Assembly: GCA_034670305.1 (NCBI GenBank)
Contig: JAXMNT010000001.1
Location: 128,001 to 192,000 of the forward strand
Reading direction: 5' to 3'
Origin: Deltaproteobacteria bacterium
GTDB taxonomy: Bacteria > Myxococcota_A > Polyangia > Polyangiales > Houyiibacteriaceae
Length of the DNA: 64,000 nucleotides
The notes below the pieces were generated by a model. The model saw only the letters and a program-made list of their open reading frames with translations. It did no database searches and was not told where the DNA came from. Of this stretch, positions 3,215-55,039 are shown piece by piece; within the stretch, counting starts at the first letter, position 1, and each line of letters opens with the position of its first letter. The position numbers were made by a program, and so were the translations under genes.

Positions 3215-4216
3215 CTCCGCCAGCGCGCGCCAGGGGTCTCCGTCTTCGCTCAGCGCGAGGTAGTCGGTCCACGCCCGCAGGGCCTGTTGCCAGTGCGGCC
3301 GGGCGTCTTCCCTCGGCGCGGCCTCGGCGTACGCCATGTGACCGAGCGCGACGTAGTAGTGCACTTCCGACTCCGGCTCGAAGAACACGTTCGGGTCATC
3401 GGTCAGCCCCTCCATCCCGCCGCCGAACACGCTCCGGGCGCGTGCGGCGTGGTCGAGTGCGCTGTGGTGTTCTCCGAGTCGATCGAGCGCCACGGCCAAT
3501 CCGAAGTGCGCGAGGAAGAGCGACCGTTCGTCCGTCGCCTCTTCGGCGTAGTCGATGGCGAGCTCGTAGTACGAGACCGCGTCGGTGAGCTGTCCATCCA
3601 TCATCAACGTCTCGGCGAGGTTGCTCGATGTGGTCGACGCGCTCTGCGCGGACATCGTGGCGGCATGTTCGAGCGCGCGTTTGTATTCGACGATCGCGAC
3701 CGCGGTCTCGCCTTCGCGGGAGTGCAGGAGCGCGAGTTCGAACGCGACGACCTCCGGCAGGTACGCCGGGTCGAGGGCTCGGACCTGGTGGTAGAGCGCG
3801 ATGGCTTCGGCCACCCGTCGCTCGGGCGCTTCTCCGGGACGGGGACGTTCGTACATGGCGGTGCGGACCGCGAGCTCGATCAGTGGTTCCGGGTCTTCCG
3901 GCACCAGCGCGTGCGCGCGGCGGAACCGTTCGATCGCGCCTTCCAGCCACGCTGCGTAGAGGTGCGGGCGCCGGTTGTTCCGCTCCTGAAGGGCGCGCGC
4001 CACGAGCACCCGGCCATGCCGCATGAGCACCGCGACGCGCCGGTGGCCGGGTTGCCGAAGCTCCCGCCAGAAGTCGGAGGTCTGCTCGACCGGACGTGTC
4101 ACCGCGGCCGAGCCAGGCGGGGCGGAGGTTTGCGCGGCGGTCGGCACAGATGGGCCGATCGAGGCCGCGAGGACCAGCCCGCACAGCGCATGCCGGGTGC
4201 CGCGTCGAAGACTCAT
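3176..4216 (-). CDS. Exported TPR protein
   Basis: ATG 4216 overlaps the upstream stop; signal-peptide-like N-terminus; TPR-like helices (NLAETLMMDGQLTDAVSYYELAI). Confidence 0.8.
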   Translation of the reverse strand: MSLRRGTRHALCGLVLAASIGPSVPTAAQTSAPPGSAAVTRPVEQTSDFWRELRQPGHRRVAVLMRHGRVLVARALQERNNRRPHLYAAWLEGAIERFRRAHALVPEDPEPLIELAVRTAMYERPRPGEAPERRVAEAIALYHQVRALDPAYLPEVVAFELALLHSREGETAVAIVEYKRALEHAATMSAQSASTTSSNLAETLMMDGQLTDAVSYYELAIDYAEEATDERSLFLAHFGLAVALDRLGEHHSALDHAARARSVFGGGMEGLTDDPNVFFEPESEVHYYVALGHMAYAEAAPREDARPHWQQALRAWTDYLALSEDGDPWRALAERHRREVEERLAR

Positions 4217-16784: not shown

Positions 16785-16871
16785 GCCGCGTTGTAGCGCG
16801 AGGACGGCCTTCGGTTCCAGTTGGAGTTCGAAGGGCGCTCGGCTTCGCTCCGCTCCGCGCGGCGAAGTCTT

Positions 16872-16924
16872 CGAGCGAAGCAGCACGCCCTGTCACGGAC
16901 GGGGTTTGGGGGCTGCCCCCAAGA
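16872..16924. repeat. REP-like repeat, inverted relative to the copy at 18056-18115
   Basis: cgagcgaagcagcacgccctgtcacggacggggtttgggggctgcccccaaga. Confidence 0.75.
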
Positions 16925-16927
16925 ATC

Positions 16928-18007: not shown

Positions 18008-18357
18008 TTGTTTCCCAAGACGGGCCTGGCTCGCTTCGCGAGACTGGCGGCCCTTTCTCTTGGGGGCACGGCCCCCAAACCCCGTCCCGGTGACACGGCT
18101 TGCTCGCTTCGCTCGGCTGCACCGTGTCGGTCTCGCGCCCGTCGCACCTGCACGTGCTCGCCGCCTCCTGCACTTGATGGGATGAAGAAGCATCTGTGGC
18201 GATTGGCGGCTGCGCGCGTCCAGGCGCTCCTATCGGCGCTCTCGGGGCGCGATTGGGGAGTGCACCAGTTGCTCGGCCTGCGGCCTGCGCAGGTGCACGT
18301 GTCGGTAAGCCTTTGTTTCCCAAGACGGGCCTGGCTCGCTTCGCGAGACTGGCGGCC
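18008..18357. repeat. 45-bp identical direct repeat (18008-18052, 18313-18357) with an embedded REP-like copy
   Basis: ttgtttcccaagacgggcctggctcgcttcgcgagactggcggcc occurs twice. Confidence 0.9.
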
Positions 18358-51010: not shown

Positions 51011-51475
51011 ATGCCCAAGAGCCCGCGCCTCTCGTTGACGGAGTCGACGGAGATCGTCTTGCCGCAGCACACCAACGCGATCGGCACGGCGTTCGGTGGA
51101 ACCATCATGTCGTGGATCGACATCTGCGCGGCCGTGAGCGCGCAGCGTCACTGTGGTCGGGTGGCGGTCACCGCGAGCGTCGACGCGCTCGAGTTCACGG
51201 CGCCGATCCGCCTCGGCGACGTCGTGATCCTCCACGCCCGCATCAACGCCGTGTTCCGCACTTCCATGGAGGTCGCGTGCAGCGTGCATCGGGAAATCAC
51301 CGAGACCGGCGAACGCATCCTCTGCGCCGAAGCATTGCTGACCTTCGTGAACATCGGACCCGACGGGCGACCGGCCGGCATCGTCCCGCTCGCGGTCGAG
51401 ACCGAAGACGACGCCGCCCGCGCCAAAGCCGCCGTCGAACGTCGGGCCTTCCGGCTGTCCCAGAAACACCGCTGA
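51011..51475 (+). CDS. Hotdog-fold acyl-CoA thioesterase (YciA-like)
   Basis: PQHTNAIGTAFGGTIMSWID, VTASVD, TSMEV. Confidence 0.92.
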   Translation: MPKSPRLSLTESTEIVLPQHTNAIGTAFGGTIMSWIDICAAVSAQRHCGRVAVTASVDALEFTAPIRLGDVVILHARINAVFRTSMEVACSVHREITETGERILCAEALLTFVNIGPDGRPAGIVPLAVETEDDAARAKAAVERRAFRLSQKHR

Positions 51476-51586
51476 GGGGCCTCGCGGCTGCGCCTCGCCA
51501 ACGACTGCGGACCGTGCGGTCTCGACCCAGGGCGTCTCCGCCGCGTAGTGCACGCCAACCCGGTCCTGACCGAAGCAAGCGAGCGC

Positions 51587-51794
51587 CACCTGCTGCGGGG
51601 ACGGAGGGCGCCGGAGTTTCGGTGTAGCCAATAGGGCGGCGGGGTTCCGGCAGGGAAGGGTTCCGTCGACAGAGTCGGCCGCGCGGCGCGACGGTGGGGC
51701 TTGTTTGCCAATGCAGCATGCTGCTGCACCGGATTGAACTGCCGTGTTCGGGGTTCCGCCGTTCGCTGCCCGGCGGGCGGCACAAAGCGCAGCG
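51587..51794. repeat. Left arm of a ~210-bp imperfect inverted repeat flanking the Y1 transposase
   Basis: Reverse-complement match to 52636-52842, including identical blocks tcggtgtagccaatagggcggcggggttccggc and tttgccaatgcagcatgctgctgcacc. Confidence 0.92.
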
Positions 51795-51846
51795 TCCGAC
51801 CCGCGTCGCCGGTGCTCAGAAAGTGGCTGCGCAAGCGACAAAGTAC

Positions 51847-51874
51847 TTGAAACGATGGCCGAATCTGATATGTT
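51847..51874 (+). promoter_or_regulatory. Putative sigma70 promoter of the transposase
   Basis: TTGAAA-16 nt-TATGTT with TGn extension in an AT-rich patch, 11 nt before the ATG. Confidence 0.55.
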
Positions 51875-51885
51875 AGCCCAATCAA

Positions 51886-52584
51886 ATGGCGCGTCGCACT
51901 CGAAAATTGAAACAGTTGGACCTGCAGTTTCGGCAGTGGGGTGGGCGACGGGTGGGCGCGGGTCGCAAGCCGAAGGGAGAACGGGCAGGCGTGGCCCATC
52001 GCCGGAGGCCGGCCATTCAGAACCGGCACCCTGTGCACGTGACCATCAAGGTCGCGAAGGACCTGCCAAACCTGCGCCGCCGCGACCTCCGGGCGGTCTG
52101 CTTTGCGGTCTTGGAAGAAGCGGCCGAGCGCCACGGCATGCGGATCGTTCACTTCTCGATTCAGAGCAATCACGTGCATCTCATCGTCGAGTGCAAAGGC
52201 ACGACGGCGCTGCAACGCGGCATGAAGGGTTTGCTCGTTCGGCTGGCCAAGCGGCTCAACAAACACCTCGGCCGGCGCGGACAAGTGTTCCCCGACCGCT
52301 ACCACGTCGAGCCGCTGAAGACGCCGACCCAGGTCCGCCACGCGCTCCGCTACGTGTTGAACAACGCCCGCAAACACGCGGGGGCCCGCAAGAAGATCGA
52401 CGCCCACTGGGTGGATCCATGCTCCACCGCGCACACCTTCGATGGTTGGAAGTCGACGCCCAAGTGCCCCGCGAACTGTGATCGAGCCCCGAGGATGCCA
52501 AGAGCGGGCACCTGGTTGCTCCGCGTCGGGTGGAGGAAGCGCGGGAGGATCCCCATCGACGACATCCCGGGTCCGCGCCGCTGA
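51886..52584 (+). CDS. HUH/Y1 transposase (IS200-like / RAYT-like)
   Basis: HVT strand, HUH motif NHVHLIVE, VFPDRYH, putative catalytic Tyr in YVLNN; basic N-terminal WGGRRVGAGRK. Confidence 0.9.
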   Translation: MARRTRKLKQLDLQFRQWGGRRVGAGRKPKGERAGVAHRRRPAIQNRHPVHVTIKVAKDLPNLRRRDLRAVCFAVLEEAAERHGMRIVHFSIQSNHVHLIVECKGTTALQRGMKGLLVRLAKRLNKHLGRRGQVFPDRYHVEPLKTPTQVRHALRYVLNNARKHAGARKKIDAHWVDPCSTAHTFDGWKSTPKCPANCDRAPRMPRAGTWLLRVGWRKRGRIPIDDIPGPRR

Positions 52585-52635
52585 CCCAGACCCCAAAGCG
52601 CAGCCACCTCTCGACTACGCGGAGCGGAGCCTTGG

Positions 52636-52842
52636 CGCTGCGCCTCACGACAGAGCCGGGCAACGAACGGCGCCGCCTCGAACACGGCAGTTCAAGGCGG
52701 TGCAGCAGCATGCTGCATTGGCAAAGAAGCACCCTCCACGCTCCGCTCTTTCTGTCCGTTGGACAGAGCGCCTTCGCGCCGGAACCCCGCCGCCCTATTG
52801 GCTACACCGAGACCCCGGCGCCCTCTGTCCCCGCATCAGGTG
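52636..52842. repeat. Right arm of the inverted repeat flanking the Y1 transposase
   Basis: Reverse complement of 51587-51794 with a divergent central hairpin. Confidence 0.92.
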
Positions 52843-52924
52843 ACGCGGTCGAACCTCCAGAAGGTCGAGGCCATCCAACCCGCAACAGGTGACGCGCCAC
52901 CCAACGAAGCGGATCGTCGGCCCG

Positions 52925-55039
52925 TCAGCCGGTCCAGACGAGTTTGCCGGGACCACCGCGCTGGGCGACGCGGAGTCGGCCCTCCGCCACGAGGGTGAGA
53001 TCGCCCAAGGACTCGGCGTCTTCGGGTGCCGAGGCGACGCCGATGCTGAGCGTGGTGTGCACGCGTCCTTTGCGGCCCTGGAAGCCCAGGCCTTTGACCT
53101 CTTGCTGGACGCGCTGGAGGGTGGTCGCGATCTCGGTCGCCGTGGCGTCGGCGAACGCGGCCACCAACATGCCGTGGCGCCATCGCCCGCGCACGTCTTC
53201 CACCCGCAAGCGCGCAGCCAGCAGTCGCGCGACGCCGTTGGTCACCCGCTCGGTGAACGCAGAGCCCTCGCGGGTACGCATCCCGTCGTGGTCGTCGACT
53301 TCGAGCACCGCGAGCGAGAACGCGTGGGCGCGGCGCCGAGTCTCGGAGAGCCGGGCGGCGAGGGCGCGGAGCAGTTCGCCGCGCGAGGGGAGCCCTGTCA
53401 CCGGATCGGGCGCGCGTCGTCGTCGCGCGAGCACGTGGTCGGCGTGTTGCCGGATGCGGGCGGCCCATTCGCTCGGCTCTCCGAGCATGCCGTCTGCGTC
53501 GAGGTTGTTCTGGGTCTGTACGAGCAGCGCGACCTGGTCGCCGCCGTCCGCCATGCGGACCACCTTGGCGAACGCCTCGGCGCCCCCGCCGAGCACGACC
53601 ACATGCGGCTGCTGTCGTTTCATCACCGAGAGCAACGACTCCGGTCCGTTCAACTGCACGACGTCGAGCCCCGAGGACGCGAGCGCATCGGCCACCGGTG
53701 GTGCGTTCACGACCACGACGCGGCGCGCATCGGGGCGCAGCGCATCCAGCCGCAGGACCGCGCGGGCCAACCCCTGTTCGTCGAGCGGGTGCGACAGAAA
53801 AAGCTGCGCGCCGCTCTCCGCCGCGCCGAGGCGCACGAGGAGTGAATCCTCCATCGCGAGCAGTGCGGTCGGGATGCCTGGGAAGCGGCTTCGCAAGGCG
53901 GCGATCGTGTCGGTACTTCGATCGGGCGAGCCGAAGGGCATGCCGATGATCGCTACGTCGACCCCCTTGAGCGTCTCGATCGCGGCGAACGAACTGCACG
54001 GGACAAAGGTGGCGAGCGAGTCCGCCAGGACCCCTTCGACATACTCGAGCAGTGCCGGGTCGTCGTCGATGATCGCCATGCGCGGTCCCAGAAAAACCGA
54101 GTCCGCAGGGTCGAGCGCAGAAACGGGCAGCTCGCGTTGGGAACTCCGAGGCAACGTGATCTCGGGCGAGGTCCGTGCCGAGGGCGGGACGGGTGGCGGT
54201 GCACTGGGCTGAAAGAGCGACGACGGCGGTTCGATCTTGGTCTTCTTGCGGATCGGCAGCGCCCGCACGGCAGCGACCGCCCGATCGAAACCGTCCCAGT
54301 CGACCGCGTCGCGGTTCTGGAGCGCACGCAGTTGCGACTCCACGACACTCGCGCAGTGCCCGATCTCCGCGTACCCAAACGAGCCTGCGGTGCCCGCGAT
54401 GTCGTGGGACTGTCGGATCGCTTCTTCGACGGAGGATGCATTGTCGGGACGCCGCCGCGCTCGGTCCACCGCGCGCAGGAAGAGATCCAGAATGTGCGGA
54501 AGCACGTCGCTGTAGGACTCGCGAAGCTTCTCTTCCGACGCCGGCTCGTCCACATCGGGCACGACGACGAAGTCGTCCATCTGCGCGTCGCCGCCCTCGT
54601 CCTCAAGCAGCTCCTCGATCTCTGCGAAGTCGAGCTCGAGGGTGGAGCTCTTGCGTTCCCGCCGCTTTCGAACCCGCCGTGCGTGCTGGGTGACCCGCAC
54701 CGCGAAGCTCGCGGGTTCCACCGGCTTGTGCACCACGTCGGCGACCTTCAACTCGTCCTTGAGCTTCTTGTAGGTCGCCAGGTCTCGGTAGAACGCGGAG
54801 ACGAACACGATGGGCGCGTCCGCCCCTTCGGCGCGGATCTTCTCGATCCAGCGGATGCCGTTGGTGTCCGGGAGCAGGCCATCCACGATCAAGAGATCGA
54901 AGTCGTGCTCCGTCAGTTTCTCGAGCGCCTCCCGGCCCTTGGCCGCTTCGACCACCTCGAACCCTTGGGTCCGGAGTGCCGGCGCCACGAGCGCGCGAAA
55001 CATCGCGTCGTCATCCAACAAGAGCAGCCAGCGCGACAC
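52925..55039 (-). CDS. REC-Hpt-REC-degenerate GGDEF signalling protein
   Basis: LLDDD...DGLLPD REC; HDIAGTAGSFG Hpt; DPVTGL; RVED followed by WRHGM in place of GGDEF. Confidence 0.85.
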   Translation of the reverse strand: MSRWLLLLDDDAMFRALVAPALRTQGFEVVEAAKGREALEKLTEHDFDLLIVDGLLPDTNGIRWIEKIRAEGADAPIVFVSAFYRDLATYKKLKDELKVADVVHKPVEPASFAVRVTQHARRVRKRRERKSSTLELDFAEIEELLEDEGGDAQMDDFVVVPDVDEPASEEKLRESYSDVLPHILDLFLRAVDRARRRPDNASSVEEAIRQSHDIAGTAGSFGYAEIGHCASVVESQLRALQNRDAVDWDGFDRAVAAVRALPIRKKTKIEPPSSLFQPSAPPPVPPSARTSPEITLPRSSQRELPVSALDPADSVFLGPRMAIIDDDPALLEYVEGVLADSLATFVPCSSFAAIETLKGVDVAIIGMPFGSPDRSTDTIAALRSRFPGIPTALLAMEDSLLVRLGAAESGAQLFLSHPLDEQGLARAVLRLDALRPDARRVVVVNAPPVADALASSGLDVVQLNGPESLLSVMKRQQPHVVVLGGGAEAFAKVVRMADGGDQVALLVQTQNNLDADGMLGEPSEWAARIRQHADHVLARRRRAPDPVTGLPSRGELLRALAARLSETRRRAHAFSLAVLEVDDHDGMRTREGSAFTERVTNGVARLLAARLRVEDVRGRWRHGMLVAAFADATATEIATTLQRVQQEVKGLGFQGRKGRVHTTLSIGVASAPEDAESLGDLTLVAEGRLRVAQRGGPGKLVWTG

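Follow-up and report, generated by a model that had tools for sequence, protein, structure and literature searches.

A probable TIRtron-type family of Y1 nuclease genes between long bipartite inverted repeats in a deltaproteobacterial genome

Described systems and the architecture of the locus

RAYT-like genes lying between long terminal inverted repeats (TIRs) have been termed 'TIRtrons' and their proteins 'TIRYTs'; according to that description, some of the repeats share the sequence GGGGWSAS, some are self-complementary and some form small repeat families, while the repeats are also sometimes single, paired or clustered and several distinct genes may occur in one genome (Di Nocera et al. 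2013, PMC3733652). TIRYTs correspond mainly to TnpA-Y1 subclass 2.1, for which the published classification gives NHVH and Y-x3-NP-type motifs, a median length of 238 aa, a mean copy number of 1.9 per genome and a helix-turn-helix at the C-terminus (Quentin et al. 2018, PMC6006769). A literature search returned no use of either term beyond these two papers, and no bench test of TIRtrons is reported in their available text. The locus considered here, a gene for a RAYT-like Y1 (HUH) single-stranded DNA (ssDNA) nuclease/transposase with its own promoter and bipartite TIRs of 210–260 bp, is probably a TIRtron-type copy. It lies in a 64,000-nt stretch (C1:128001-192000; hereafter the window) of the genome of a Deltaproteobacteria bacterium, assembled to 7.93 Mb on 105 contigs; C labels denote contigs of this assembly and L labels individual loci or contigs compared, including metagenome contigs L121–L127.

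The resemblance to TIRtrons, as these are described in print, begins with the defining architecture, a RAYT-like Y1 gene with long TIRs in place of repetitive extragenic palindromic (REP) sequences, and extends to repeats that are sometimes partly self-complementary and are sometimes also found singly, in pairs or in clusters, to the presence of several genes in one genome, and to protein length (232 aa, against the subclass 2.1 median of 238 aa). Differences from the same published descriptions are nevertheless evident: GGGGWSAS, the sequence of the main TIRYT group, occurs in 1 of 26 arms on either strand; the tyrosine motif is without the proline of Y-x3-NP; no helix-turn-helix is detected here by Pfam, subclass 2.1 being represented in this comparison by its published description only; at least 13 copies are present in the genome, compared with the mean of 1.9; and the arms are bipartite, with side-specific spacers. 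The element would add a new member to the TIRtron class, set apart by its copy number and by how long its copies persist, its unusual traits being at least 13 diverged copies under purifying selection, bipartite side-specific arms and a junction hot spot at GTAGCC. An earlier note on this DNA had started from the premise that Y1 genes are without long terminal inverted repeats, which overlooks the TIRtrons and TIRYTs described in PMC3733652; its suggestion of a poorly described RAYT-like class holds.

The Y1/HUH open reading frame (ORF; 51886–52584 of the window, + strand) encodes 232 aa and lies between inverted arms that are 85–86% complementary. A repeat search of the window resolves two inverted pairs, 51583–51667 with 52762–52846 (85 nt, 86% complementary) and 51683–51774 with 52655–52746 (92 nt, 85% complementary), in agreement with the arms first proposed at 51587–51794 and 52636–52842; a 12-nt palindrome is found in each arm (51713–51724 and 52705–52716). 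Because the identical arm type brackets every paralogue in the genome, the arms stand far above chance. The unit of arms and gene measures ~1.27 kb, which leaves no space for tnpB, and the Y1 gene is situated between the 3' ends of a 4HBT thioesterase gene and a receiver-Hpt-GGDEF gene, so that the absence of tnpB noted at the outset stands. The promoter-like sequence proposed together with it, TTGAAA-16-TATGTT (51847–51874, + strand), is the only such site in 51400–53000, with 0.1 expected from shuffles. It is placed between the left arm and the ATG at 51886, its −10 hexamer ends 11 nt upstream of that ATG, and no Shine–Dalgarno sequence is visible upstream of the Y1 ATG, so that the Y1 mRNA, to judge from these signals, is probably nearly leaderless; since the predicted promoter is downstream of the left arm, that arm would fall outside the mRNA.

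The encoded protein matches the Pfam family Y1_Tnp (Pfam accession: PF01797; E 3.3e-9, 37.3 bits, cut-off 23), and the NHVH and YVLNN motifs by which the gene had been recognised are conserved in 16/16 aligned homologues, with the HUH motif and the tyrosine invariant across 46. N160 is likewise invariant, and the residue following it in the window protein is alanine, without a conserved proline. Matches to the NCBIfam families REP_Tyr_transpos (NF047646; 38.8 bits, cut-off 80) and transpos_IS200 (NF033573; 23.8 bits, cut-off 55) fall below threshold. An AlphaFold2 model built from 46 sequences (mean predicted local distance difference test score 86.6) is confident for the HUH/Tyr core and for a conserved C-terminal extension of ~65 aa; residues 1–45 are basic and disordered in the model, yet include Gly and Arg residues that do not vary. 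Among the Foldseek matches, the best is 4er8_A, the Escherichia coli RAYT in complex with a REP hairpin (E 1.7e-5, 134 columns), and next come the IS200-family TnpA structures 2f4f, 2ec2, 2vjv and 2xm3 (E 1e-4 to 4e-4), while a sequence-profile search reaches only two archaeal IS200 transposases (E 0.003–0.005). The C-terminal 65 aa are without a PDB match, the Foldseek alignments covering at most 134 columns of the core, and no helix-turn-helix Pfam family (DnaA_C, HTH_23 or HTH_28-like) is found in the Y1 protein at E up to 0.01. A consensus DPxSSA in the homologue alignment may correspond to the 'SS' tail motif listed in Table 1 of PMC6006769. PADLOC matched no family, and PHROGs returned a generic transposase family only (E 4.9e-5).

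Copies, arms and rearrangement junctions in the genome

Searched against the genome, the left arm is found at 28 places, mostly in inverted pairs 1.0–1.2 kb apart, and arms bracket each Y1 copy. Eleven copies are full-length and stop-free (on C1, C68, C38, C20, C63, C31, C59, C14, C15, C11 and C55), with 70–100% amino acid identity, and all 11 PF01797 matches in the genome are members of this family; a 53-aa fragment on C3 and two 32-aa pieces at contig ends are also present. Four contig ends lie inside elements: C63:1-255 (L005), C105:1811-2063 (L007), C36:78137-78450 (L014) and C52:1-327 (L010). Because these ends share exact 127-mers, a suffix common to the C63 start and the C105 end and a prefix common to the C36 end and the C52 start, at least two further copies have been collapsed in assembly, bringing the genome total to at least 13. 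When the 11 copies are aligned with 700-nt flanks, similarity starts at ~51580 and ends at ~52847–52850; homology thus starts and stops at the arm termini, and the multiplied unit is arms plus gene. The commonest arm 16-mers occur 18–23 times in the genome, about two per element. Copies of the arm elsewhere in the genome, for which the earlier note had proposed a search, are present, mostly as element ends and not as free repeats, and its long REP-like unit is not supported, in that the arms are not dispersed alone: one gene-less doublet and a few solo terminal modules are found. A weak Y1 match at C6:10438-10731 (29% identity, E 2.5e-4), in a 334-aa frame, falls below the Pfam Y1_Tnp threshold.

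The anatomy of the arms was drawn from an alignment of 26 sequences, comprising 12 left and 12 right arms of full elements and the two halves of the gene-less C29 doublet. Each arm is 210–260 bp long and consists of a terminal module, an outer box, a spacer, an inner box and a shorter conserved tail, none of them assigned a strand; the outer GTAG block, variable middle and conserved palindromic inner block first discerned in the window copy recur as the same modules in the aligned arms. The terminal module (~50 nt; 51580–51629 on the left, where the homology of the 11 aligned copies starts) begins on the left with CGAGCG, ends with GGTGTAGCC and is weakly conserved, with an identity between copies of 0.45–0.66. 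The outer box (~29 nt; 51623–51651, with GTAG at its start, and 52778–52805, with CTAC at its end on the + strand) is 0.75–0.88 identical across copies, left–right identity within one element averaging 0.87. The inner box (~56 nt; 51696–51751 and 52679–52734) retains an identity of 0.85–0.94 over all arms although synonymous sites between copies are saturated, which bears out the selection on long arms that had been proposed. Between the boxes lies the spacer (~45 nt; left-type at 51652–51695, right-type at 52735–52777 by arm alignment), for which identity is 0.52–0.60 left–left, 0.47–0.58 right–right and 0.42–0.46 left–right, the low left–right value holding for same-element and different-element arms alike; spacers are side-specific, of a left type and a right type. 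The inner tails (51752–51800, and 52630–52678 from the repeat search and arm alignment) are partly complementary to one another.

A hairpin motif, TGCAGCA-TGC-TGCTGCA, sits in the inner box (51712–51728 and 52701–52717 in the window copy) and is present in 25 of the 26 arm sequences. Substitution of C for G leaves one stem mismatch in 7/12 full-element left arms and in none of the right arms; IS200/IS605 ends bear imperfect hairpins, which this left–right asymmetry resembles. Purifying selection acts on the gene, on both boxes of each arm and on the 7-bp hairpin, and the spacers drift freely. Co-evolution of the two arms within an element was considered and rejected, because left–right identity is about the same within and between elements (same- versus different-element subgroup means of 0.61/0.58, 0.83/0.82, 0.45/0.43 and 0.88/0.89, C63 being excluded because its arms derive from two separate copies). 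In the C20 copy (L003; C20:45081-45376) the right arm is cut just before the hairpin and continues into unrelated sequence and two tandem 80-nt repeats, the gene remaining intact.

The right end of the window copy is compound. Positions 52804–52847 form an inverted left-type terminal module, private to this copy, and the older right-type terminus is left as a relic at 52848–52896, similar to the right-hand ends of the C36 and C38 copies; a direct repeat links the two (52830–52847 and 52879–52896, 94%). Gain of the inverted left-type module accounts for a terminal left–right identity of 0.87 in the window copy, versus 0.51–0.81 in eight other elements, and the paralogue form without the extra module is seen as the joint 52803>52863 in public DNA-run contigs.

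Rearranged relatives place further junctions at the same boundary. On C75 a left terminal module stands alone and stops at the counterpart of GTAGCC, a full element being found in a sister organism near the orthologous gene end of this site; on C52 two extra tandem terminal modules stand outside the right arm; and on C3 a right terminal module is fused, immediately past GTAGCCAAT, with the final 53 codons of the gene. The extra module of the window copy was gained at the boundary shared by the C3, C75 and C52 junctions, so that four independent junctions break within GTAGCCAAT, a 9-nt span in an arm of ~230 nt. This clustering suggests that cleavage or joining is favoured at the GTAGCC boundary, or that a module ends there. 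The C29 doublet without a gene (~317 bp) is of another form, a C55-type left arm and a right arm being fused within the hairpin palindrome with a 7-nt overlap. A decayed solo remnant at C18:23509-23583 comprises a terminal module and outer box, followed by an unrelated hairpin with a 9-bp stem.

Selection, persistence and relatives of the copies

Nonsynonymous (dN) and synonymous (dS) divergence, calculated by the Nei–Gojobori method for all 55 pairs of the 11 copies, gives dN/dS ratios of 0.049–0.233 in every pair, the smallest dS being 0.153. Branch ratios from a three-taxon decomposition of the two youngest triplets are ~0.04–0.16, so selection has acted on the resident copies and not just on an active master copy. 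The copies are old and all under purifying selection, and the domestication envisaged in the earlier note holds in spirit, with 11/11 copies intact, dN/dS of 0.05–0.23 and one orthologous retention.

That retention was identified through a 21-nt inner-box pattern, which retrieved 7 metagenome contigs with flanks 84–92% identical to this genome and with 5/5 complete Y1 ORFs intact. The C59 copy recurs in L122 beside the same right flank (88% nucleotide identity over 2990 nt), L125 has the C59 left flank and left arm, and L127 a copy whose right flank corresponds to the C36 end. The orthologous pair C59/L122 has a dS of 0.31 and a dN of 0.029 (dN/dS 0.09), and its dS falls inside the range of the flanking host genes (0.13–0.86 for in-frame ORFs, four rows with dN/dS >2 having been left out as wrong-frame ORFs). 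In L123 and L126 a C55-type copy adjoins the orthologue of C68:3222, a site without a copy in this genome, so copies have been gained or lost on this time scale. Copies persist long, including one kept at the orthologous locus of a sister organism, and the Y1 family has the character of long-lived resident genes rather than of a fast insertion sequence, with movement rare. In L121:1-2227, compared with C11:62469-65111, a left-type arm adjoins the orthologue of the C11 right-arm flank; this arrangement would mean inversion of the whole element between its arms, and L121 and L126 share 1139 nt at 97.9% before diverging, so that the contig is possibly chimeric.

In the wider family, at least 1752 proteins match the Y1 protein at E up to 1e-5, under the source labels 'transposase' or 'REP element-mobilizing transposase RayT', and in a pattern search of species-representative genomes 580 of 595 matches encode relatives. 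The best 80 loci come from assemblies of Myxococcota and Planctomycetota, in which a genome often contains many copies; a Y1 homologue at E up to 1e-10 is present in 5 of 30 related genomes of other genera and in 1 of 18 of the same family. After 6 of the best 80 loci had been left out for too little flank to test, a flanking inverted repeat of at least 40 bits was found at 18/74 loci and a direct repeat of that score at 3/74. Arms of 150–340 bp occur in L045, L046, L051, L118 and L037; those of L045, L046 and L051 keep a 12–13-bp hairpin in which two pairs are changed on both sides between two genomes, which may be taken as modest evidence for compensated changes in two lineages only.

Possible activity and competing readings

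By analogy with the TnpA proteins of IS608 and ISDra2 and with E. coli TnpA-REP, the two boxes and the hairpin may guide single-strand nicking and rejoining: the Y1 protein would bind the inner-box hairpin and the outer box on ssDNA, nick nearby with its tyrosine and then rejoin the strands. Two candidate nick sites can be proposed, one at the GTAGCC/AAT boundary, the location of the four independent rearrangement junctions, and one 9–11 nt 3' of the hairpin, a spacing like that at the right end of IS608. Because the arms are inverted, the recognition strand would be presented on opposite strands at the two ends.

Several points weigh against a TIRtron-type reading of the locus. To our knowledge, it is not established by what mechanism a Y1 enzyme would act on ends that are inverted, and an inverted repeat of at least 40 bits is absent from 56 of the 74 homologue loci. 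Transposition was not observed in any instance. Near-identical assembled copies are absent, no pair exceeding 92% DNA identity, and a target-site duplication is not evident at any inspected element end, the ends being fuzzy. The collapsed copies have near-identical interiors and clearly different outer arms, a pattern that suggests gene conversion of the gene-bearing interior rather than recent transposition. No clean empty site was found in same-family genomes, at the C68:3222 locus or in public DNA-run contigs. Thioesterase orthologues occur in 14 of 20 same-family genomes and a GGDEF homologue lies within 1.5 kb at none of the 14 loci, so there is no synteny to compare, and the empty site between the thioesterase and GGDEF genes that the earlier note had looked to in relatives was not found. 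At C68:3222 the intergenic DNA of this genome has been replaced by microsatellites and the other flank is not syntenic; hexanucleotide arrays fill C68:~3230-3400, where sister organisms carry an element copy. Public contigs of four runs from one study enter the element from both flanks and none joins across, the two joints reported being paralogue forms; no RNA run is listed as carrying the sequence. Orthology was read from short metagenome contigs, in which repeats may have produced chimeric joins. Purifying selection on all resident copies is, moreover, atypical for a selfish insertion sequence, and a host-level role fits it at least as well.

REPtrons are reportedly formed by RAYT/TnpA-REP genes with REP, BIME or REPIN repeats, and are said to have been described by Nunvar in 2010 and by Bertels and Rainey in 2011. 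The locus recalls them in that the E. coli RAYT is the closest solved fold, the gene lies between inverted repeat units containing GTAG, the copies diverge slowly under purifying selection with vertical retention (in one orthologous case here), and the gene-less C29 arm doublet looks REPIN-like. It differs in that the arms are 5–10 times the length of REPs (20–40 bp), the REP_Tyr_transpos match stays below its cut-off and the Y-x3-NP motif is not found. The numbers differ also from those published for RAYT groups, which are given as 1.3–1.8 copies per replicon with flanking 16-mers occurring 12–140 times (57–140 in groups 2 and 3), against at least 13 gene copies and 18–23 occurrences of the best arm 16-mer here (Bertels et al. 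2017, PMC5581495).

An unlikely alternative, though the most probable of the three, is that the Y1 paralogues are domesticated RAYT-like enzymes with the dispersed 80-nt and 50-nt double-hairpin repeats of this genome as substrates, the arms serving as docking or autoregulatory sites. It is favoured by purifying selection on all copies, by the Y1 copies being the only PF01797 genes in the genome, and by insertions of the 50-nt repeat into the inner boxes of the C11 left and C15 right arms that agree in position and in orientation. Moreover, copies of the 80-nt repeat lie within ~150 nt of four element-related loci (C15, C55, C20 and the C3 fragment), and a search of 30 relatives returned neither repeat. 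Yet this co-occurrence is known from one lineage only; both repeats are in any event clustered in intergenic islands, so that nearness to elements is weak evidence; other insertion sites of the 50-nt repeat are without the arm's target sequence; and 13 enzymes for two repeat families would be without known precedent. The 50-nt repeat itself has 23 BLAST matches in the genome and 18 pattern matches (12 exact), against 0 for the reversed control; within arms it occupies C11:64874-64925 (L022:1449-1500) and C15:125530-125580 (L024:1606-1656), its insertion point in the inner box being equivalent to window position 51739/51740. The ~80-nt palindrome-ended repeat has 94 BLAST matches, often in tandem, and is seen in the window at 16858–16926 and 18058–18129 and also at L020:2869-2954.

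Clearly less probable is an ordinary, currently active IS200/IS605 insertion sequence. The HUH/Y1 catalytic core, with its Y1 fold and weak NCBIfam IS200 match, the small conserved hairpin near each end, the multi-copy state in the genome, and the copy beside the C68:3222 orthologue in two metagenome contigs that is absent here would all agree with such an element, of which IS608 and ISDra2 are examples. The transpos_IS200 score, however, stays below its cut-off, the ends are long inverted repeats and not asymmetric subterminal hairpins, no target tetranucleotide and no asymmetric left/right hairpin pair are present, and the two most similar assembled copies share 92% DNA identity, hence are not near-identical. 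Subclass 1.1, which holds the IS200/IS605 TnpA proteins, is characterised by DH[VI]H and Y-x3-Q in Table 1 of PMC6006769 and by 99.4% intragenomic identity in the same source, against NHVH and Y-x3-N (YVLNN) and a dS of at least 0.15 between assembled copies here. The active IS200/IS605 reading is thus largely refuted.

The weakest alternative turns on folding of the arms. Six arm segments folded as ssDNA give z-scores of +0.06 to −2.0 relative to dinucleotide shuffles, and RNAalifold, run with parameters for DNA, yields on either strand practically no common fold for 13 left-type spacers (−1.12 kcal/mol, about 4 pairs) and none for 13 right-type spacers (0.0). Two spacer hairpins quoted in the earlier note are real in the window copy, absent from paralogues and no better than chance, so that neither its 'structure kept while sequence diverges' nor the covariation it had proposed to test is recovered; the conserved part of the arms is the sequence of the two boxes together with the small hairpin. 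Arms acting as a structured non-coding RNA, as had been suggested, or as regulators at the RNA level, for instance through pairing between the transcript's 5' and 3' ends, are very improbable: the right arm would be part of the 3' untranslated region and an RNA hairpin could form from the palindrome, but the arms are without an Rfam match at E up to 1, the spacers without consensus structure or covariation and the fold scores unremarkable, and the single promoter-like site, being downstream of the left arm, does not transcribe it.

As a TIRtron-type element, probably the correct assignment, the locus is of specialist interest, its kind having already been described (PMC3733652). A more far-reaching possibility, and an unlikely one, is that the paralogues, at least 13 in number, constitute a selected, resident battery of ssDNA nucleases shaping the intergenic repeats of the lineage, and not decaying transposon copies. 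If so, nicks would be expected at the GTAGCC boundary and beside the arm hairpin, with shuffling of the 50-nt terminal modules and mobilisation of the lineage-specific 50-nt and 80-nt hairpin repeats, and the family would be a multi-gene hybrid of TIRtron and REPtron, a missing link between transposon-like and domesticated RAYT systems. The genome in any case offers a natural series of at least 13 intact diverged copies, an arm-only doublet, solo and tandem modules, and orthologues in sister organisms, which defines the constrained parts of the arms (two boxes and a 7-bp hairpin) and where rearrangements cluster. It thereby supplies concrete substrates, together with predicted nick sites, on which the action of a Y1 enzyme at inverted ends could first be tested biochemically, and a test case for whether selection rather than transposition can maintain high-copy Y1 genes.

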